From a virus (taxonomy: Duplodnaviria > Caudoviricetes), in IMG/VR virus record IMGVR_UViG_3300048858_000111, positions 1 through 56,145 of that record: a stretch of DNA of 56,145 bases. One strand, written 5' to 3'. The notes beneath the pieces were generated by a model. It made no database searches. It saw only the letters and a list, made by a program, of their open reading frames with translations, and was not told where the DNA came from. The position numbers were made by a program, and so were the translations under genes. Positions 1 through 50,719 of this stretch are shown here, one piece after another; position 1 is the first letter of the stretch, and each line of letters starts with the position of its first letter.

Positions 1-17
1 TTACTCGCTACTTTCAA
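1..17 (+). promoter_or_regulatory. Probable integrase arm-type binding site
   Basis: TTACTCGCTACTTTCAA matches 47634-47650 TTACTCGCCACTTTGAA at 15/17. Confidence 0.7.
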
Positions 18-1128
18 ATAGAGTCTCGATGACTCCCGCGAAGTCGGCGATCTCGGCCTGGCGTTCGATGTAGAACTCCTTCGTGATCTCCTCCGACCCG
101 TGCCCGAGCTGGTCGGCTGCAGCCTTCGTGCCGACCTGCCGGGCGAGGAGCGTCGCGACGGCCTTCCGGTAGTCCCGGGGCGTCTTGCCCTCGTACGGGG
201 TGTCGACGAGCGCCTGCCGCCACTGTCGTCTCGTGTTCGCAGGCCACCGCCACGTGCCTGTGGCAGAGGGGAAGACCATCGGGTACTCGGCGTTCACGCG
301 GCGCTCCGTGAGCATCGCGACCACGGTTGGCGGCAGCTGCAGGCCGCGGTTGCCGGCCTCGCTCTTCGGGTGGTCTTGCCGGACGAGGCCTTCGTCATCG
401 ATGAGGGTTCCGTTCACGTACACGACACCGCGTGCGAGGTCGATGTCCTCGTCCCATCGGAGGGCGAGCGTCTCGCCGATCCGGGCGCCGGTGGCGGTGA
501 GCATCTGGGCGAGCTCGTACAACTCGGAGACGTGGTCCCGGTCGTACTCGCGGAACAGGTCGCGCATGGCGTGAATGTCGCTCCCGCTCATGACCTTCAC
601 GATCCGCTTCCTGGCGGACACAGAGATGACGTCGGCGGCGTAGTTCTTCGGGACCGCCCCGTGACGCACGGCGAGGGCGAACATCTGCACGAGGACGGTG
701 CGGGCTGTGCGGGCCGTAGAGACGCGCTCCATGCGTTCACGGATGAAGCGGTCAAGGCGCGGTGTTGTCGCCTCACGCAGGCGCAGGTCGCCTAGCGCGG
801 GCAGAATCTGACCTCGGACAGAGTTCCGGTACGTCGTGAGGGTGCCGACGGGTGTGCCCTTCAGCTTCCGCTCCGCCAGCCACGCGGCCGCGAGTTCCTC
901 GATGGTCGACGTGGGGGAGAGCAGGCCATCGGACTCGCCCTCGGCAAGCTTCGCCCGCAACGCCGCGAGTAGAACCGTCTCAGCGTTCGCCTCGGTCTTG
1001 CCGTAGCGCTGCATTTTCCGCCGCCGGCCTGTCGCGTCACGGTAGTAGGCCGTCGCCATTGGTCGCCCTCCGACCGTGCTGCGGGTGACCTTGCCCCACG
1101 TCTCGAGGGGGAGCGCTGGTCTAGGCAA
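1..1128 (-). CDS. int: Tyrosine integrase
   Basis: GARIGE (R), PKSEAG (K), RDYR (HxxR position), QLGH and EFY catalytic motifs; probable TTG start at 1128 overlapping the upstream stop. Confidence 0.93.
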   Translation of the reverse strand: MPRPALPLETWGKVTRSTVGGRPMATAYYRDATGRRRKMQRYGKTEANAETVLLAALRAKLAEGESDGLLSPTSTIEELAAAWLAERKLKGTPVGTLTTYRNSVRGQILPALGDLRLREATTPRLDRFIRERMERVSTARTARTVLVQMFALAVRHGAVPKNYAADVISVSARKRIVKVMSGSDIHAMRDLFREYDRDHVSELYELAQMLTATGARIGETLALRWDEDIDLARGVVYVNGTLIDDEGLVRQDHPKSEAGNRGLQLPPTVVAMLTERRVNAEYPMVFPSATGTWRWPANTRRQWRQALVDTPYEGKTPRDYRKAVATLLARQVGTKAAADQLGHGSEEITKEFYIERQAEIADFAGVIETLFESSE

Positions 1129-1564
1129 GAGCGGCCTTTGCAACCCACTGGCCCTCGCCCATGCGGGGGTCGACGTACGTGATCTCGCCGAGGCGCATGA
1201 GGCAGTACTCCCGGTAGTCACGCACGATCTGCGGTGTCACGTCGAGCTCCTCGGCAATGAAGGCGACATCGTGAGAGATGGCCTCGGCACGGGCGTACGC
1301 GAGGGGGTCGACGAGCAGGGACGCGGCGAACCTGTTGGCCTGGCGCTCACCCGAGGGGCTGGCGCAGGTGTGGCAATACTTCGCGTGGCCAAGTTCGTGT
1401 GCGATGACCTCATGGCGCTCTGCGCGGGTGAGGTTCATCTCGACATAGATCGTCGATTCGTCGTGGTCGTAGAAGCCGACGAGGTCTTCTTCGATCTCGT
1501 CGAGGTGCGCGATCACCAGGCGTACCCCGAGTCGCCGAGCCACCCCCCACAGCTCTCGCATCAT
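1121..1564 (-). CDS. ImmA/IrrE-family metallopeptidase (anti-repressor)
   Basis: HELGH zinc motif, ERQANRFAASLL; lies between repressor and integrase. Confidence 0.88.
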   Translation of the reverse strand: MMRELWGVARRLGVRLVIAHLDEIEEDLVGFYDHDESTIYVEMNLTRAERHEVIAHELGHAKYCHTCASPSGERQANRFAASLLVDPLAYARAEAISHDVAFIAEELDVTPQIVRDYREYCLMRLGEITYVDPRMGEGQWVAKAALA

Positions 1565-1568
1565 CCGG

Positions 1569-1955
1569 CTACTCCTCGGTGTCCTTCTTGGGGCGTCGCT
1601 TCGCAGCCATCTCACCCTTGCCCTGCTCCCAGCGCTGGCGGGCCTTCTCGGTCGCAGCGCGCGGCGTGGAATCAGTATCGGCATCGCCTACGACACTGAG
1701 CGTCCGACCGGCAGCGGCCGGCCTCGCTTGAGCGACTAGCTCGAAGGGGGAGAGGCCGAGGAGCTCGGCGATGCCGTCGAGATCGGTGGTGCTCCACGGG
1801 TGCTTACCGTTCACGCGGTAGGAGACGTAGGTCTGGTTGCGGCCGATCTGCTCAGCGATGTCTTCTTGGCGCACGCCAGCGGCTTTCCGCAGGCGCTCGA
1901 TGGTGAGCCTGAGCGCGTCGGAGAAGGGCGACAGATCGTTCTCGGTGTTATCCAC
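1569..1955 (-). CDS. XRE-family immunity repressor
   Basis: HTH LRKAAGVRQEDIAEQIGRNQTYVSYRVNG; divergent from cro; GTG start at 1955 assumed. Confidence 0.85.
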   Translation of the reverse strand: MDNTENDLSPFSDALRLTIERLRKAAGVRQEDIAEQIGRNQTYVSYRVNGKHPWSTTDLDGIAELLGLSPFELVAQARPAAAGRTLSVVGDADTDSTPRAATEKARQRWEQGKGEMAAKRRPKKDTEE

Positions 1956-2033
1956 GAGTCTCGACTGTAGCAATGAAATATTGCCAGCGCCATATGTTGA
2001 CATGAATATGGCGATGAACATATGGTCTACAAC
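1956..2033. promoter_or_regulatory. Lysis/lysogeny switch: promoter and operator
   Basis: TTGACA (1997-2002), 18 nt, TATGGT (2021-2026), ATG 7 nt later (leaderless); inverted repeat CCATATGTT (1990-1998) / AACATATGG (2017-2025). Confidence 0.75.
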
Positions 2034-2276
2034 ATGAACTTGACCAACGCAGTCGGCGGAGAGCTCAAAGCGGAACTCGCCCGTCGAGACCTGTCGCAAG
2101 AAGTCCTCATGACCGCTTGGAAAGTGAACCAGTCGACGGTGTCGGCGAAGCTCAAGGGCCGTTCACCCATCTCCACTGAAGAACTCGACGCGGCAGCACG
2201 AGCGCTGGGCTTCGACCCGTTCGAGTTCGTCGCTCGCGCTGGGGCCAACGCTGTCCGGAACGAGGCCGCAGCGTGA
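2034..2276 (+). CDS. Cro-like HTH regulator
   Basis: ELARRDLSQEVLMTAWKVNQSTVSAKLKG; first rightward gene. Confidence 0.8.
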   Translation: MNLTNAVGGELKAELARRDLSQEVLMTAWKVNQSTVSAKLKGRSPISTEELDAAARALGFDPFEFVARAGANAVRNEAAA

Positions 2277-2467
2277 GTGCCACCGTCTGGCTCAACGAGC
2301 AGCAGTGCTCGGAGATGACCGGCATACCTGTCGGCACTCTGCAGGACTGGCGCACGAAGAAGCTCAACATCCCGTTCTCGCGGATCGGCCGGTTGGTCCG
2401 GTACGCGGAAGACGAGGTCGACGCCTACATGCGGTCGCAGACGGTCGCCGTGAAGAAGTCGGCCTAA
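2273..2467 (+). CDS. Excisionase-like HTH protein
   Basis: GIPVGTLQDWR...IPFSRIGRLVRY..DEVDAYM. Confidence 0.8.
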   Translation: MSATVWLNEQQCSEMTGIPVGTLQDWRTKKLNIPFSRIGRLVRYAEDEVDAYMRSQTVAVKKSA

Positions 2468-8930: not shown

Positions 8931-9092
8931 GTATCGAGATCAATCTCATCTGCGACCACTGCGGGCGCGTCATCGACGGCGGCAAGACAGCCCGCGCAAT
9001 ACGTGCTGAAGCCAAGAGCACGGGCTGCAAGGTCGCCCTCGCGGGTGGCCGAGACCTCTGCTGGGATTGCGCGAAGCGGGCCGCAGCATGAG
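8912..9092 (+). repeat. 20-bp direct repeat flanking one small gene
   Basis: GAAGCGGGCCGCAGCATGAG at 8912-8931 and 9073-9092. Confidence 0.9.
8927..9091 (+). CDS. 54-aa zinc-finger protein (not in ORF track)
   Basis: MSIEINLICDHCG...DLCWDCAKRAAA; ATGA overlaps at both ends. Confidence 0.7.
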   Translation: MSIEINLICDHCGRVIDGGKTARAIRAEAKSTGCKVALAGGRDLCWDCAKRAAA

Positions 9093-9474
9093 CGCCCTCG
9101 ACGGCACACTCGAGGTCGGCGACCTCGTGTGGCAGCAGATGTACGACCCGCAGCACCCCAGCTTCGACGCGACGCTCGCCGAGCGCATCGCCGCCGGCAA
9201 GACCTACGGTGACCGCCGCAAGATGCGACTCCTCGGCATCTGGCCTTACGACGGCGACCGGTGCAACTCGTGCCTGGGTTCCGGTCGAAGCATGGTCCGA
9301 GAGCGCGGCGTCTGCCAGCCCTGTGGCGGTGCTGGGAAGTTCCATCGCCCGCACGTCACCGTCCGGTGGCAGCTCGCCGAGGCGGGTCGTGAGGGTGACC
9401 ACAGCACCTATTCGTGGGTGGATGACGGCTGGTGCGTGCTCGAGCACGTGACCGATGAGGGAGCGCTGTTCTGA
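9088..9474 (+). CDS. Protein with two DnaJ-type CxxCxGxG motifs; homologue at 49583-49969
   Basis: CNSCLGSG and CQPCGGAG; 100/128 aa identical to the prophage 2 copy (hand alignment). Confidence 0.8.
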   Translation: MSALDGTLEVGDLVWQQMYDPQHPSFDATLAERIAAGKTYGDRRKMRLLGIWPYDGDRCNSCLGSGRSMVRERGVCQPCGGAGKFHRPHVTVRWQLAEAGREGDHSTYSWVDDGWCVLEHVTDEGALF

Positions 9475-44943: not shown

Positions 44944-44984
44944 GCCCCCTCAGCCCTCTTCGGAGTGGCTGAGGGGGCGCTTTG
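44944..44984. terminator. Intrinsic terminator ending the late operon
   Basis: GCCCCCTCAGCC...GGCTGAGGGGGC between convergent genes, TTTG tail. Confidence 0.85.
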
Positions 44985-44987
44985 TCG

Positions 44988-45770
44988 TTAGTCCGAGAGG
45001 ATCACGATTCGATTCGCTGGGCCGGTGTGTTCTGGACTGGCCAAGGTGGTCCTTTCTACGAAATCCGCGTGTTGGACGGAGTCCAACGTCGGCCAGCGGT
45101 GCGCCTCCATCTCGTCAATACCTGACCAGAGAATCACGGCGTTGCGCTCTGTGAGGGCGCCCCGGTCCATCAATGGTCGGAGGAGGGCTTGCTTCATGAC
45201 GACAAAGATTGCTTCACCCAGCCAGAACCAAGTCAGCTGAGACGGCTGAACCGTGTCGTCCCCCTCATAGGTAAGCCCGAAGCGGCTGTGCCTTGATGCC
45301 AGATCCCACCGAGCTGGCGTACCCCACACGAGGAACACGAGATGCCCCGGCGGCACCTCGTCTCGCTCGCGAATGAAGCGGATGTCAGCCTCCGAGAAGT
45401 TCCATGGCCCCCTGTCTCGGGTGGCGCGAAGCATGGCGACGATTGTCGCCCACACGGCAAGGTCTGCGGCGGCAGCGCGATCGAATACGGTGTCCTGACC
45501 GTAGGCCAATCTGGTGACGAGGTCGCGGGTCCGATTCTCGAACCCGTTCATCCAGGTGCCATTGCAGTCGTGGCAGGCTCGCCTGACTTGCACATCCAGT
45601 GGAGGCGAGTGGTACCGATGGCTGTGGTCCTCGCGTCCATTAGGCCCCTCCCAATAGGCGTCAACGGCCACGCTCTGCGCCGACTTTGGTAACGCCTCCT
45701 GCAGCTTCAGACCGATCAGATGCGTGGACGTCAGCTCTGAGGATCCGCAGAACATGCACGTGCGCGCCAC
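44988..45770 (-). CDS. HNH-like zinc-finger nuclease with uncharacterised C-terminal domain
   Basis: CMFCG....T.TH...RRACHDCNGTWM..FE; lower GC; GGAGGG RBS. Confidence 0.62.
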   Translation of the reverse strand: MARTCMFCGSSELTSTHLIGLKLQEALPKSAQSVAVDAYWEGPNGREDHSHRYHSPPLDVQVRRACHDCNGTWMNGFENRTRDLVTRLAYGQDTVFDRAAAADLAVWATIVAMLRATRDRGPWNFSEADIRFIRERDEVPPGHLVFLVWGTPARWDLASRHSRFGLTYEGDDTVQPSQLTWFWLGEAIFVVMKQALLRPLMDRGALTERNAVILWSGIDEMEAHRWPTLDSVQHADFVERTTLASPEHTGPANRIVILSD

Positions 45771-46015
45771 TAGGTTCCCTCCTCGAGAAACCCGATCCTA
45801 TTTCCCAGCTCCCGGAGTCCGTCGACTGCATCTTGGGCGGTAGCAAACGGCCCCAACGCGAACGCCCTCCGCGACAGATCTGCATCGTCTGCGTGACTCG
45901 CCCGCCATCCGTCGGCTTCTTCCTCGATGCGCCAGTCTGCGTCGACGAGCACCCCGTTGACTTCGCGCACGACCCAGTAGTGGTCGTCTTCGATACCGCG
46001 GGCGAGGAACAGCAT
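45770..46015 (-). CDS. Hypothetical protein
   Basis: 1-nt stop/start coupling on both sides. Confidence 0.6.
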   Translation of the reverse strand: MLFLARGIEDDHYWVVREVNGVLVDADWRIEEEADGWRASHADDADLSRRAFALGPFATAQDAVDGLRELGNRIGFLEEGT

Positions 46016-46152
46016 CAGCGGTCGACGGTGATCCAGAGCCGCTGCAACTCGCCACGGTCGGGTAGCGCGGCCTTCGCGGTCTCGTAATCGGGGCCCTCGC
46101 CTTGGTCTTCTCGGATCTCGCCGTCGACGCGGTAGGCGGTGCGCACGATCAT
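46015..46152 (-). CDS. 45-aa hypothetical protein (not in ORF track)
   Basis: MIVRTAYRVDGEIREDQGEG...; ATGA overlap upstream, TGATG downstream. Confidence 0.6.
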   Translation of the reverse strand: MIVRTAYRVDGEIREDQGEGPDYETAKAALPDRGELQRLWITVDR

Positions 46153-46454
46153 CTTCTGACTCTAGTGTCGGTGCGTGGTCCCATGCCGCGGTGCTGGTCG
46201 TTGAGCGCGTCGGGGATGAGAGACGCGAGCATCTCCCGGTTGCACGCCATGGCGGCGTCCTCGAGCTCGATGAAGTACCCCTGCCCGATGAGTCGGCGGG
46301 GCTCCTTGTACGTCACCGCTCGCCACCGCGAGGCAGGCTCGCCTTCGATGGTGAGCTGCACCCATCGGAGGACGGCGAACGGTTCCTTCGTGCCAGGGAC
46401 GGGGAAGTGCAGCTCCACGGGCCGCAGGGTCTGGACGGGCTTCCAGTCGGGCAC
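46149..46454 (-). CDS. Hypothetical protein
   Basis: GAGAGGAG RBS with GTG; WRAVTY..PRRLIG.GYF..LE.AA. Confidence 0.7.
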   Translation of the reverse strand: MPDWKPVQTLRPVELHFPVPGTKEPFAVLRWVQLTIEGEPASRWRAVTYKEPRRLIGQGYFIELEDAAMACNREMLASLIPDALNDQHRGMGPRTDTRVRR

Positions 46455-46537
46455 GGTCGCTCCTCTCGTGGGGAGCGCGCCGGCCCGCGCAGCACTGATG
46501 GTAGGCACCACCACCGACGACACGCCAAATGACAAAT

Positions 46538-46570
46538 GCCCCCGACCAGCGCCTCTTGCTGGTCGGGGGC
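46538..46570 (-). terminator. Intrinsic terminator
   Basis: GCCCCCGACCAGC...GCTGGTCGGGGGC, then ATTTGTCATTT on minus strand. Confidence 0.85.
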
Positions 46571-46586
46571 GATCTGTGCCCTGCTG

Positions 46587-47276
46587 CTAGTCGTCGAGTC
46601 CGTTGAAGTCGCTGCTAGAGCAGCTGACGTACGCATAAGCGCCTGTCGATGTCTGCTCGCTGACCACTTCGCCGTCGATGCTGATTCGGCACGTCACCGA
46701 CCCTGGCTCGGCACCCGTCGTTCCTGACAGCGAGAAGGACTTGTAGTCGAAGTCATCCCCTGTCGGAACCGTGAACTCCTTCACGAACGGGATGGGGACA
46801 CCGTCTGCCGACTCCGAACCAGACGATCCGTTCGTGTAGGTCGAATAGCGGGCGTCGATCGTTGGCGCGTCACCGGTGATCTCGTACTTCACGGCGACCG
46901 GGACGGCGGCCGCTGCAGAGTTCGATGCCTGCACTTCCTCGTAGCTCGAGCTCACCGATGCAGCGAAGCCAGCGGTGTACACGATCGCAAGGATGATCGA
47001 CAGAATGAGCGCGACGAAGCTGATCACGGCTCCTGCGATCGCGGCGCCCTTCGACCGGCCCTTCAGGAAGATCGCAATGACACCGAGGACGAGTCCGATG
47101 AACGCGATGAATCCAGAGCCGTAGTTCAGGAAGGGGATGAAGGCTCCGACGAGTGCCAGGATGCCGATGATGAGGGCGGCGATGCCCAGCCCATTCGTCT
47201 TCTTCTCGGGCGCGGGAGCCGCGTACTGGGGTGCAGCAGGAGGCGGGTACATGGGTGGTTGCTGTGGCTCAGTCAT
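46587..47276 (-). CDS. Membrane protein (DUF4190-like TMs plus MmpS-like domain)
   Basis: Pro-rich N-terminus, TNGLGIAALI.GI, three TMs, VKYEITG...VTCRISIDGEVV...VSC. Confidence 0.78.
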   Translation of the reverse strand: MTEPQQPPMYPPPAAPQYAAPAPEKKTNGLGIAALIIGILALVGAFIPFLNYGSGFIAFIGLVLGVIAIFLKGRSKGAAIAGAVISFVALILSIILAIVYTAGFAASVSSSYEEVQASNSAAAAVPVAVKYEITGDAPTIDARYSTYTNGSSGSESADGVPIPFVKEFTVPTGDDFDYKSFSLSGTTGAEPGSVTCRISIDGEVVSEQTSTGAYAYVSCSSSDFNGLDD

Positions 47277-47370
47277 GTGTAGATGATGACAGAGCGCTTC
47301 TCCGCGCGGTGGCACCCGAAAGGGGGACGCGCACCATTCGGGTGTCGGTGGTGGGTGGCATCGTGGCTCC

Positions 47371-47649
47371 ATGCTCACCGACCAGGAACACGCCATCCTC
47401 GCCTTCGAGGAGCACTGGATCGACAGACCCGCAGGTGCGCGCGAGCTCGCGATCTTCGACACCTTCGGGTGGCGGCTGCCCCGTCACCAGCAAGTCCTGG
47501 GCCGGATGCTCGAACGGCAGGACGTGATCGCCGCGGCCCCGCAGCTCGTCTACCGCCTCCTCGCTCGGCGAGAGCGACGCCTCGCGGCGCGGGCAGCACG
47601 CCTTGCTCCCAGACCTGTGAGGCGATCCGCCACTTACTCGCCACTTTGA
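47371..47649 (+). CDS. DUF3263-family protein
   Basis: LTD.E.AILAFE..W...E.AI...FG....R..Q.L...P.LV.RL...R. Confidence 0.75.
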   Translation: MLTDQEHAILAFEEHWIDRPAGARELAIFDTFGWRLPRHQQVLGRMLERQDVIAAAPQLVYRLLARRERRLAARAARLAPRPVRRSATYSPL

Positions 47650-47732
47650 ATCCAAGGTGCCCGGAATTCGTCGGAAATCACCGGAAGGAGCGGCGCACCG
47701 CAGCACCGAGAATTCGCGCCAGTCGGCACTTT
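47628..47732 (+). promoter_or_regulatory. Integrase arm-type sites of attR
   Basis: CGCCACTT at 47628 and 47639; TCGGCACTTT at 47723; same motif at 1-17. Confidence 0.7.
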
Positions 47733-47742
47733 TCGGCTATCT

Positions 47743-48066
47743 TCAGAAATCGCACTCCGTATCAGTGGGTTCTGGGTTCAAGTCCCAGGGGGTGCACACT
47801 ACGCGGGTCGGCCCGCCGGGAAGTGTCCGACCCGTCATCAGCCAATAGGCATCGACCCCGGTGCGGTCGGCGATCTTGTCGGCGATCTCCGCGAGGTTAC
47901 GCGGCTTGCTGCCGAACGTCTCCCACTGCCGCCACGAGCCGGCGGGGATAGCGCACGCGAGCGCCGCTTCCTTCGCGTTCCAGCCCATCATGTGACGCAC
48001 CATCGCCAGTCGTACCGAGAAGTCGCCGGCGGTCGGCACCCACCCGGCAATTGCCATATCGCTCAT
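47743..48066 (-). CDS. XRE-family repressor whose 3' end spans the att core
   Basis: RLAMVRHMMGWNAKEAALACAIPAGSWRQWE...IA..TGVD..WL.TG; tail CTPWDLNPEPTD is the tRNA antisense. Confidence 0.85.
   Translation of the reverse strand: MSDMAIAGWVPTAGDFSVRLAMVRHMMGWNAKEAALACAIPAGSWRQWETFGSKPRNLAEIADKIADRTGVDAYWLMTGRTLPGGPTRVVCTPWDLNPEPTDTECDF
47761..47797 (+). repeat. att core: 3' half of a tRNA (probably tRNA-Lys CTT); attR of prophage 1 and left end of prophage 2
   Basis: A-TCAGT-GGGTT-CTGGG-TTCAAGT-CCCAG-GGGGTGC-AC: anticodon 3' strand, T-arm and acceptor strand, no 5' half; isotype from recall, anticodon absent. Confidence 0.85.
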
Positions 48067-48167
48067 GCCACCCATCTAACCGCATTGCGTGAATATCGTG
48101 CAATAGGGCGCATGCGTCGGCGTGGCGTGATTGACGCTAATTACACTCGTGTGATTCACTCACCTGC
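48067..48167. promoter_or_regulatory. Divergent promoter/operator region of prophage 2
   Basis: TTGACG (48131-48136); imperfect palindrome AATTACAC-TC-GTGTGATT (48139-48156); TTGCAC on minus strand. Confidence 0.6.
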
Positions 48168-48350
48168 ATGCCGAGTGAAATCACGCTATTCACGACTACC
48201 CAGGTCGCAGAGCGTTTCGACGTGGACACATCCACGGTACGCCGCTGGGTGCTCACCGGACGCCTCACTCCGACAGACACGACGCCCGGCGGTCACCACC
48301 GCTTCACGCAGGCCGACCTCGACGAGATGAAGCGTGGTCGCCGATCGTGA
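48168..48350 (+). CDS. MerR-like HTH (Cro/excisionase)
   Basis: TTTQVAERFDVDTSTVRRW...G.L....TPGGH.RF...DL. Confidence 0.85.
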   Translation: MPSEITLFTTTQVAERFDVDTSTVRRWVLTGRLTPTDTTPGGHHRFTQADLDEMKRGRRS

Positions 48351-49015
48351 GTGAGCCGAAGAACGTCGGCGGCTTCCTCGTGCGCCGCATGCAGGCGTGG
48401 GAGCGCGACTACACCACCATCCCCAACGCGTACGTGCGCGACGGCCGCCTGAGCTACAAGGCGCGGGGCATCCTCGCGGTGCTGATGAGCCACCAGGACG
48501 GCTACCAGCTCAGCCTCAAGGCACTCGCCGAGAGCAGCCGCGAGGACGGCATCGCAGCCGTCCGAACCGCGGTCAACGAGCTGGAGACGTTCGGCTACCT
48601 CGTGCGCGTCGACAAGCGTCTGCACGGCGGCAACAACGGCACCCGGTGGGAGCTGACCGACCCCACCGTGCCGCTGTTCGACCCTGTGGATAACACCCCC
48701 TCGACCCCATTCGAAAATCGCACGTCCGAAAATCGCACGTCCGAAAATCGCATGCAAACCCCATTCGAAAATCGCACGCAAGAAGAAGACCAAGTTAAGA
48801 AAACTAGAGCTTCCCAAGGTGACCCTACGAGCGGCGCTGCTCGGCCTGGGGATAACTCGGACGCCTTCGGCGCGCCCTCCGACCCGCTGACCCGATGGCT
48901 GAGCGAGCGATGCCCCGCCGACTGGCACGAGCCGCCGGCACCCCACGACCTCGGCACGAACGGCAAATGCCGAGGGTGCTACGAGCCCGCCCCACGAGAG
49001 GAAGCCCACGCATGA
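48347..49015 (+). CDS. Replication initiator (wHTH)
   Basis: YTTIPN...RD.RLS.KARG.L..L.SH...AV..A..ELE..GYL; internal iterons. Confidence 0.82.
   Translation: MSEPKNVGGFLVRRMQAWERDYTTIPNAYVRDGRLSYKARGILAVLMSHQDGYQLSLKALAESSREDGIAAVRTAVNELETFGYLVRVDKRLHGGNNGTRWELTDPTVPLFDPVDNTPSTPFENRTSENRTSENRMQTPFENRTQEEDQVKKTRASQGDPTSGAARPGDNSDAFGAPSDPLTRWLSERCPADWHEPPAPHDLGTNGKCRGCYEPAPREEAHA
48685..48855. repeat. Probable origin: four iterons flanked by DnaA boxes
   Basis: CGAAAATCGCA at 48712, 48727, 48742, 48766; TGTGGATAA (48685-48693) and TGGGGATAA (48847-48855); A-rich tract near 48780-48808. Confidence 0.75.
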
Positions 49016-49383: not shown

Positions 49384-49586
49384 GCCCCGTCGACGCGGTT
49401 CTGCTCATCCTCGGCCTGTCCATCGCCCTCGCACTGTGGGTCATGGTCGGCGTCATGCTCACCCGCGAGGCCCGCCAGCGTGCGTGCGTGATCGACGGCA
49501 CGGAGCGGCCGCAGCGGGCGCTCTCGAGGCGGCGAGTGAATCGCTTAGTGCGTCGATGGGAATCCGCGCGGGACGCGATCTCGTGA
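49380..49586 (+). CDS. Small single-TM protein
   Basis: AVLLILGLSIALALWVMVGVML; coupled. Confidence 0.62.
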   Translation: MSPVDAVLLILGLSIALALWVMVGVMLTREARQRACVIDGTERPQRALSRRRVNRLVRRWESARDAIS

Positions 49587-49969
49587 GCGCGCTTGACGGC
49601 TCGATCGAGGTCGGTGACGTGGTGTGGCAGCAGATGTACGACCCGCAGCACCCGACACCGCAGGCCACGCTCGCCGAGCGCATCGCCGCCGGCAAGACCT
49701 ACGGCGATCGCCGCATCATGCGCGTGCTCGGCATCTGGCCCTACAAAGGCGATAGCTGCAACTCGTGCTTGGGCGCGGGTCGCAGCATGCTCCGCGATCG
49801 CCTGCCGTGCGTGCCGTGCTCGGGTGCGGGCGTCATCCATCGGCCGCACGTCACGGTCAGGTGGGCGCTGGCCGAGTACGGCCGCGAGGGTGACGACTCG
49901 ACGCACTCATGGGTCGACGACAGCTGGTGTGTGCTCGAGCACGCGACCTTGGACGGCGCACTGTGGTGA
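49583..49969 (+). CDS. DnaJ-type zinc-finger protein; homologue of 9088-9474
   Basis: CNSCLGAG and CVPCSGAG; colinear 128 aa. Confidence 0.8.
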   Translation: MSALDGSIEVGDVVWQQMYDPQHPTPQATLAERIAAGKTYGDRRIMRVLGIWPYKGDSCNSCLGAGRSMLRDRLPCVPCSGAGVIHRPHVTVRWALAEYGREGDDSTHSWVDDSWCVLEHATLDGALW

Positions 49970-50280
49970 CGCTCCGCATCCCACACGGCGACGGCGCACT
50001 CGCCGACCCCGATCTGCCAGAGCAGAAGTGGGGCGGCCGCAAGGCGCAGCAGTACGTCCGCCTCACGCTCGAGCAGTACGGAGATCGCTGCTGGCTGTGC
50101 GGGTTGCCCGGCTCGACGACCGCCGACCACGTGATACCTCGCTCGCACGGCGGCGCAGTCTACGACCTGCGCAACCTCGCGCCGGCACACAAGAAGTGCA
50201 ACGAGTCACGAGGCAATCGAGAAGCCGAAGGGCCCGCGCGCATCGTCGAAAGCGGCCTCGATTTCTTTAGAGCGGCCTAG
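49966..50280 (+). CDS. HNH endonuclease (packaging-associated)
   Basis: CWLCG.PG.TTADHVIPRSHGG....NL.PAH..CN..RG. Confidence 0.9.
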   Translation: MTLRIPHGDGALADPDLPEQKWGGRKAQQYVRLTLEQYGDRCWLCGLPGSTTADHVIPRSHGGAVYDLRNLAPAHKKCNESRGNREAEGPARIVESGLDFFRAA

Positions 50281-50347: not shown

Positions 50348-50719
50348 ATGAACGCCGATCAAATCGAATTGCCCGGGCTCGAGCTGAATGCCGCCAACGG
50401 CGCTACGGCGTCTGCGCTGCGACGGGCTGTGATCGAGACGATCAGCGCGCTGCACCAGGCCAACCTGCTCGAGCCCCGGCACGCGGCCATGTGTCAGCTC
50501 GCGCTCGAGCTCGCCGACGCTGTTGCCGCCGGCACCCGCTCGGGACGCGCATCCGCTGCGGCTATGGCAGCCGGCCAGCTCCGCGAAACGCTCGAGGCGT
50601 TGCCCCAGCCGAAGACCGAGGGCGCCGAGCAGAAGTTCGAAGCGTGGGTGCTCGCGCTGAAAGCCGCCGGCGAGGTCGAAGAGAAGCCGGCCGACGCTCA
50701 GCCGCCGGCCGAGCAGTGA
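50348..50719 (+). CDS. terS: Terminase small subunit
   Basis: Helical LA..LA..V....S.A.A....L...L..L; directly upstream of terL. Confidence 0.7.
   Translation: MNADQIELPGLELNAANGATASALRRAVIETISALHQANLLEPRHAAMCQLALELADAVAAGTRSGRASAAAMAAGQLRETLEALPQPKTEGAEQKFEAWVLALKAAGEVEEKPADAQPPAEQ

Follow-up and report, generated by a model that had tools for sequence, protein, structure and literature searches.

Integration-dependent immunity (IDI) of the mycobacteriophages BPs, Brujita and Charlie was reportedly described by Broussard et al. in 2013 (Mol Cell 49:237). At tRNA genes, repeated use of the 3' half leads to the tandem accretion of mobile elements, which leaves an intact tRNA at one end of the array and copies of the core between the elements; in most such arrays, to our knowledge, no gene is read across the junctions.

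According to two reports, the C-terminus of an IDI repressor decides its stability, and the ssrA-like tags of these systems end in Ala-Ala (PMC8092301, PMC9934374). The only real precedent for a repressor read across a tandem junction that we found in the full-text literature is represented by prophiT36-2a and prophiT36-2b, tandem IDI prophages located at the tRNA-Thr site attB-2 of M. abscessus T36, T38 and T48 (Amarh et al. 2023, PMC9934374); the other uses of the word "tandem", among those checked, carried different senses. That paper states that the sequence lying across the attRa/attLb junction decides the stability of the downstream repressor, and that the order of integration is ambiguous. 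A hybrid junction setting the C-terminus of an IDI repressor was already analysed in 2023. IDI characteristics have also been described for the Gordonia phages Bowser and Schwabeltier (spelled Schnabeltier in the sequence records), for which no attB was identified (PMC4982277).

Here we describe a comparable junction within a stretch of 56,145 nucleotides (referred to below as the window), which constitutes a provirus-type virus record. Our reading, to which we assign a probability of about 0.72, is that a single tRNA-Lys(CTT) gene carries two temperate phages inserted head to tail, that the boundary between them is a hybrid attR1/attL2 site, and that the IDI repressor of the right-hand element (prophage 2) is extended by a probably neutral peptide, TECDF, encoded by the left-hand element (prophage 1). 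The features of the window are as follows.

1..1221, minus strand: tyrosine integrase Int1 of prophage 1 (Pfam Phage_integrase and Phage_int_M; longest ORF 406 aa)
1121..1684, minus strand: ImmA/IrrE-like metallopeptidase with an HExxH motif (Pfam Peptidase_M78, 3.8e-09)
1569..2099, minus strand: XRE-type repressor candidate (Pfam HTH_31/HTH_3)
2022-2276, plus strand: cro-like helix-turn-helix gene (Pfam)
2273-2467, plus strand: excisionase-like gene of the HTH_17 type (Pfam)
23849..25537, plus strand: large terminase of prophage 1 (Pfam TerL_ATPase)
44988..47276, minus strand: right-arm genes of unassigned function (GC3 gene call; phrog_32775/11491/8241)
46587-47276, minus strand: membrane protein (Pfam Mycobact_memb)
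47371..47649, plus strand: DUF3263 gene, final prophage 1 gene ahead of the junction (Pfam DUF3263, 6e-16; phrog_5316)
47650..47760, no strand assigned: putative P arm of the prophage 1 att site, with no relation to the tRNA except ACTC beside the core
47761..47797, plus strand: common core of 37 nt, equal to positions 38-74 of tRNA-Lys(CTT) (identity to intact genes)
47743..48075, minus strand: immunity repressor of prophage 2, IDI type (110 aa; probable start at 48066)
48168..48350, plus strand: divergent MerR/HTH_17 gene, excise/cro-like (Pfam HTH_17, 5.6e-11; phrog_2474/66)
48347..49015, plus strand: replication-initiator-like DNA-binding protein (phrog_1456/428/4707; Pfam HTH_36)
49909-50280, plus strand: HNH endonuclease (Pfam)
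50491-52206, plus strand: large terminase of prophage 2 (ORF; Pfam)
52406-53569, plus strand: portal protein (Pfam)
53503-55344, plus strand: prohead protease fusion (Pfam)
up to 56145, plus strand: further gene, ending exactly at 56145 (ORF end)

The record begins with the stop codon of the integrase gene (window 1-3) and ends with the stop of another gene at 56145. Since both ends coincide with gene boundaries, the record has been excised from a longer contig, and of the three core copies expected, the middle one alone lies inside it. The proteins of the window are catalogued under a contig of 121,418 bases. A single public DNA run (X1), labelled as a soil metagenome, contains the junction region and may be its source; no RNA run with this region was found among the sequencing runs searched.

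The two sides of the core carry the genes of two different phages, i.e. two terminases, two portals and different regulatory modules (Pfam). The only DNA that they share is a 300-nt segment of 78% identity (9089-9388 versus 49584-49883), placed within two ORFs of unassigned function (9067-9474 and 49436-49969). Homologous recombination between the tandem prophages could use this segment as a substrate.

The left end of prophage 1 has the conventional, non-IDI layout, in which the XRE-type candidate is adjacent to the integrase. The Int1 product found in the database (P0023, 100% identity) is 352 aa long and starts with MATAYYRD at approximately position 1059. Beyond the regulatory genes it carries replication and structural genes, and possession of a terminase gene (23849..25537) means that this element has its own packaging module. 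Its right arm (44988-47649), composed of a block of small minus-strand genes lacking a family match, the Mycobact_memb-like membrane protein and the DUF3263 gene, adjoins attR, which is the usual position of cargo expressed in the lysogen. A related provirus (G001) encodes an integrase 86% identical to Int1 over the matched residues 30-406 and is syntenic with prophage 1 in the early region; in the right arm the two have common pieces at 44945-45000 and 45905-46016, in conserved order, and share little else. The G001 sequence ends short of its att end. In two further loci, encoding integrases 67% (L012) and 59% (L004) identical to Int1, the integrase gene is separated by 78-80 bp from an intact tRNA-Lys(CTT), with the 3' ends of both genes facing each other. 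The location of Int1 relatives beside this tRNA, with the same core boundary, makes an indirect but fairly strong case that prophage 1 uses tRNA-Lys(CTT) and has its P arm at 47650-47760. Among named organisms, the closest relatives of Int1 come from Herbiconiux (86, 78, 76 and 69%) and Microbacterium (~60%), which suggests a host in the Microbacteriaceae; it is probably a Herbiconiux-like actinobacterium of this family.

Prophage 2 is visible from the core to the end of the record and continues beyond it, as indicated by the gene ending at 56145 and by a contig of run X1 that extends 9.2 kb further with unchanged depth. The 613-aa ORF at 53503-55344 combines a Peptidase_S78 domain with a long C-terminal part, presumably a fusion to a scaffold or capsid protein. 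Searches of IMG/VR and of the phage collection identified no close relative of this element, and the 41 + 41 genomes around G244 and G349 (overlapping lists) contained none. In metagenome contigs, exact matches numbered 0 both for the O+P2' 30-mer and for the P1+O 36-mer. A single-protein search of genome contigs with the repressor gave no close relative, and a search with the repressor alignment gave three distant loci. When 8 kb of prophage 2 was compared with phage genomes by blastn, matches (65-77% identity) were limited to the repressor, the xis-like gene and a piece of the terminase; for the gene at 48168-48350, the DNA identity to the xis-like gene of Babsiella/Xula amounts to 76.5%.

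The core (47761-47797) comprises the 3' strand of the anticodon stem, the variable loop, the T arm and the 3' acceptor strand of a tRNA. Over its whole length it matches, without a difference, the 3' part from A38 onwards in all five intact tRNA-Lys(CTT) genes examined (L004, L012, L026, L027 and L028), which are also identical to each other; the tRNA identity proposed in the initial annotation (Lys, anticodon CTT, loop CTCTTAA) is thereby confirmed. Immediately to the left, the window reads ACTCCGT and the tRNA ACTCTTA, and farther left the two are unrelated. A reading of the loop-like sequence CTCCGTA as tRNA-Arg(CCG) was rejected after the intact tRNA-Lys had been identified. Within the window the 37-mer is present in one copy, and matches with up to 3 mismatches appeared in none of 100 shuffled sequences. 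ARAGORN called no tRNA anywhere in the window, while cmscan gave one partial tRNA-like match (47752-47796; 14.9 bits, below the gathering score). A 29-mer of the fragment was present in 13 stretches of IMG/VR contigs (3 called as tRNA-Lys(CTT) and 2 as phage-borne tRNA-Lys(TTT)) and in 3 of 401 sampled Actinomycetes genomes, always inside an intact tRNA-Lys(CTT).

In IMG/VR contigs (L005, L006, L010, L013, L016, L008 and L015) the 3' half of tRNA-Lys(CTT) is joined to at least four different left arms, with the start of identity shifting slightly between loci. Several phage lineages use tRNA-Lys(CTT) as an integration hot spot. Another tandem array at this gene was observed in IMGVR_UViG_3300031084_000008 (L016, 3724-5037). 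The L004/L016 provirus, of ~45 kb and with an Int1-type integrase, extends from the tRNA to a second core copy, in which identity to the tRNA again starts at A38; 95 bp beyond the attR core of L016 lies a different tyrosine integrase. This second integrase following the core means that tandem occupation of tRNA-Lys(CTT) is not unique to the window, and the accretion known from other tRNA genes is thus also seen in L004/L016.

Several minor features of the junction sequence were also noticed. Pairing is possible between the end of the prophage 1 arm (GCACTCC) and the 3' acceptor strand (GGGGTGC), and 47752-47797 could therefore fold as a tRNA-like acceptor/T-arm minihelix; the cmscan scores of this segment are weak (mascRNA-like, 21 bits, E 0.06; tRNA, 14.9 bits), and the minihelix is probably due to chance. 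The same is likely for an imperfect direct repeat of ~25 nt (47705-47729 in the prophage 1 arm and 48014-48039 in the 5' part of the repressor gene) and for other short repeats at the junction. A scan of 47500-48400 for promoters and terminators found neither.

The repressor gene of prophage 2 is read leftward across this site. Translation of the ORF at 47743..48075 ends in ...VVCTPWDLNPEPTDTECDF*; the probable start is the second in-frame ATG (48066, MSDMA...), where the homologues also begin in the family alignment. The att core lies inside the coding sequence, and the antisense reading of the 37-nt block, CTPWDLNPEPTD, supplies residues 94-105, while residues 106-110 are derived from prophage 1 DNA. 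In the same frame, the antisense strand of an unaltered intact tRNA (L026) gives CTPWDLNPEPTD*, against CTPWDLNPEPTDTECDF* in the window. The TAA beside the intact tRNA is the antisense of T35, T36 and A37 and follows PEPTD directly. The stop used here is a TGA (47743-47745) five codons (TECDF) farther on, and both the extension and the stop are encoded by the final 18 nt (47743-47760) of the P arm. Two statements of the initial annotation, namely that the repressor runs through the tRNA fragment and gains TECDF from prophage 1, and that an intact tRNA would end the protein at PEPTD, are thus borne out by these translations.

Pfam provided no match for the repressor, which was assigned by comparison with PHROGs to phrog_2328, a family of transcriptional repressors (2.4e-20). 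A tblastn search of 50,697 phage records matched 40 of them, all below 60% identity. These include phages of Gordonia (Schnabeltier, Bowser (gp40), MagicMan and Eyes) and Arthrobacter, the mycobacteriophages Brujita (gp34), Island3 and Babsiella-type (gp34), and M. abscessus prophages (e.g. prophiGD53-3) in which the repressor occupies the very end of the record and attP is noted within it. The best matches were Schnabeltier and Bowser gp40 (57-58% over residues 2-86), and in alignments with IDI repressors the identity was 46-54%, with 46% for Brujita gp34. In an alignment of 21 proteins conservation is high over the first 85 residues, with 21 columns invariant and all of these retained by the prophage 2 protein; the tails are unconserved. 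On this evidence, the repressor belongs to the Brujita gp34/Gordonia Schnabeltier family of IDI repressors.

Many tails of the homologues contain antisense-tRNA peptides (VRHQGLEPRTR, PRVDSNHEPSD and APDSNREPTD) that are typical readings of the T arm and, within this one family, correspond to several different tRNAs. Short forms of the family end directly after such a peptide. Among the 11 long forms, four terminate in Ala-Ala (as an example of such an end, Brujita gp34 has ...NEHAA), and therefore the tag rule is not uniform; four of the other seven end in TVA-x-x, which may represent a different C-terminal signal. The ordinary picture of a single lysogen is provided by Williamsia muralis (L024), where a 103-aa homologue ends in EPRTR* inside an intact tRNA-Lys(CTT). 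A model obtained with AlphaFold2 and the family alignment predicts five helices within residues 19-81 (pLDDT ~90 for residues 21-80) and a tail disordered from approximately residue 86, with pLDDT below 50 for residues 91-100 and 104-110. These low values suggest that the tRNA-encoded part and TECDF are carried on a probably disordered tail.

The locus resembles the IDI systems of BPs, Brujita and Charlie in that (i) the att core lies in the 3' coding part of the repressor gene, (ii) a tRNA gene contributes its 3' part as this core, and (iii) the host tRNA would give a stop immediately to the left of the core. Shared with Brujita are also a homologous repressor (gp34, 46%) and a divergent MerR-like gene (gp35). 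The Brujita map reads integrase, repressor and divergent MerR-like gene, and the window presents a repressor together with a divergent excise/cro-like gene (HTH_17/MerR, 48168-48350). The IDI-type layout suggested from the sequence at the outset is supported by this homology and by the antisense reading through the tRNA-Lys(CTT) core. In contrast to the three mycobacteriophages, the host here is probably a member of the Microbacteriaceae and not Mycobacterium, attB is tRNA-Lys(CTT), and the stop codon in use comes from another prophage instead of the host. Bowser and Schwabeltier have no DNA similarity to prophage 2 detectable by blastn outside the repressor gene.

The tandem of strain T36 (PMC9934374) shares with this locus the occupation of one tRNA attB by two different prophages, the hybrid attR/attL junction at its centre, and a downstream IDI repressor that reads into the DNA of the upstream prophage. 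Both T36 phages are of the IDI type, and the question considered there is whether the remnant of the neighbour's ssrA tag is in frame or not. Here the upstream phage is a conventional one (Int/ImmA/XRE) with its integrase on the tRNA side, and it adds five residues to the repressor. Excision products were demonstrated by PCR for T36; the present case is described from sequence. The two cases differ in probable host family, in the tRNA, in the nature of the neighbour, and in having a five-residue extension as opposed to an out-of-frame remnant.

The presence of a separate conventional prophage on the left, together with the location of Int1 relatives at tRNA-Lys(CTT), indicates that the site is a hybrid attR1/attL2. 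The core would then be the middle of the three attachment copies, serving both as attR of prophage 1 and attL of prophage 2, with the intact tRNA expected to the left of Int1 and the third core copy, with Int2, at the far right. In phage 2 the attP core would be situated within the 3' part of the repressor gene, and for this reason the reading of the prophage repressor would leave the phage and pass, in antisense, through the tRNA-derived core. With the intact tRNA alongside, a TAA from the anticodon loop would close the protein at ...PEPTD; as the core is preceded on its left by the prophage 1 arm, translation continues for five codons (TECDF) to a TGA. By the general mechanism of tyrosine integrases, excision of prophage 1 (attL1 x attR1) would restore both the tRNA and the PEPTD* end. 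Insertion of phage 1 into attL2 and insertion of phage 2 into attR1 yield an identical map, and so the order of arrival of the two phages cannot be told. With a crossover close to the left core boundary, attL2 would be a complete target for phage 1 and attR1 would lack the host half-site needed by phage 2, which weakly favours the order given in the initial annotation, i.e. insertion of prophage 1 into the tRNA rebuilt at attL of prophage 2.

The join itself might be an artefact of assembly, in which the arms of the prophages were wrongly connected through the 37-nt repeat; the true order would then be tRNA, prophage 2, prophage 1, or the two would belong to separate genomes, and the repressor would have the PEPTD* end. 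The Logan contigs of run X1 indeed stop at 47790 and restart at 47768, with none bridging the core, which forms a separate 37-nt node of depth 139 (~5x that of the flanks) common to other sequences in the sample. Since these contigs break inside the core, the P1-core-P2' connection depends on the original assembly. However, the depths of the two flanks in run X1 are nearly equal (28.6 versus 25-27), as would fit one genome, and tandem elements at the same tRNA are present in another record (L016: a core followed by a second integrase). Ordinary reads, and the final k-mers that metagenome assemblers usually employ, are longer than 37 nt. The joints listed for the X1 contigs, all with sides of 20-27 letters, were taken as noise. 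We consider a false join improbable. Slightly more improbable still is that prophage 2 is a decaying remnant, or its repressor disused, so that the altered C-terminus has no biological meaning. It is true that only 8.3 kb of prophage 2 is visible in the record and that the integrase end lies outside; nevertheless, all its visible genes are intact ORFs with coding-type GC3, its DNA runs on for 9.2 kb past the record at the same depth in run X1, and the repressor keeps every one of the 21 family-invariant columns.

Even if the tandem reading of the junction is correct, the extension might make the prophage 2 repressor more or less stable or active, in which case the presence or excision of prophage 1 would tune the immunity and induction of prophage 2. 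This idea draws on the role of the C-terminus in setting the stability of IDI repressors, described in PMC8092301 and PMC9934374, and on the fact that the translated hybrid junction does alter this C-terminus. The authors of PMC9934374 argue that the repressor would become unstable, and the lysogen non-viable, if such a junction created an in-frame fusion, which implies that the junction sequence can matter in principle. Yet TECDF has no Ala-Ala end and contains Glu and Asp, the tail is predicted by AlphaFold2 to be disordered and outside the helix-turn-helix fold, and the tails of prophage-form homologues are unconserved in both length and sequence. Moreover, encountering a stop within 6 codons is unremarkable (p ~0.13, a rough estimate from 67% GC). 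An effect of TECDF is accordingly held to be a slim prospect, and the proposal of the initial annotation that prophage 1 tunes the stability and immunity of prophage 2 is unsupported, the tail being unconserved, predicted to be disordered and without an Ala-Ala end. A further variant, marginally less probable again, would have the C-terminus set by whatever occupies the neighbouring slot, an unrelated prophage acting as a reversible switch (PEPTD in its absence, PEPTDTECDF in its presence) that couples the induction of the two prophages. Given a predicted tail that is disordered and unconserved, the extension is most likely without effect.

The tandem arrangement at tRNA-Lys(CTT) would add an IDI system outside the described phages of Mycobacterium, Gordonia and Arthrobacter, in a host that is probably a soil member of the Microbacteriaceae. 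Its design is tidy: bases 35-36 of the anticodon and base 37 of tRNA-Lys(CTT), read in antisense, form the stop codon of the repressor. It would also be a second natural hybrid attR/attL junction that rewrites the C-terminus of an IDI repressor, in this case next to a conventional phage. Should the tail matter, the att junction could offer prophages at a shared tRNA hot spot a means of regulating each other; the likelier outcome is a neutral appendage of five residues.
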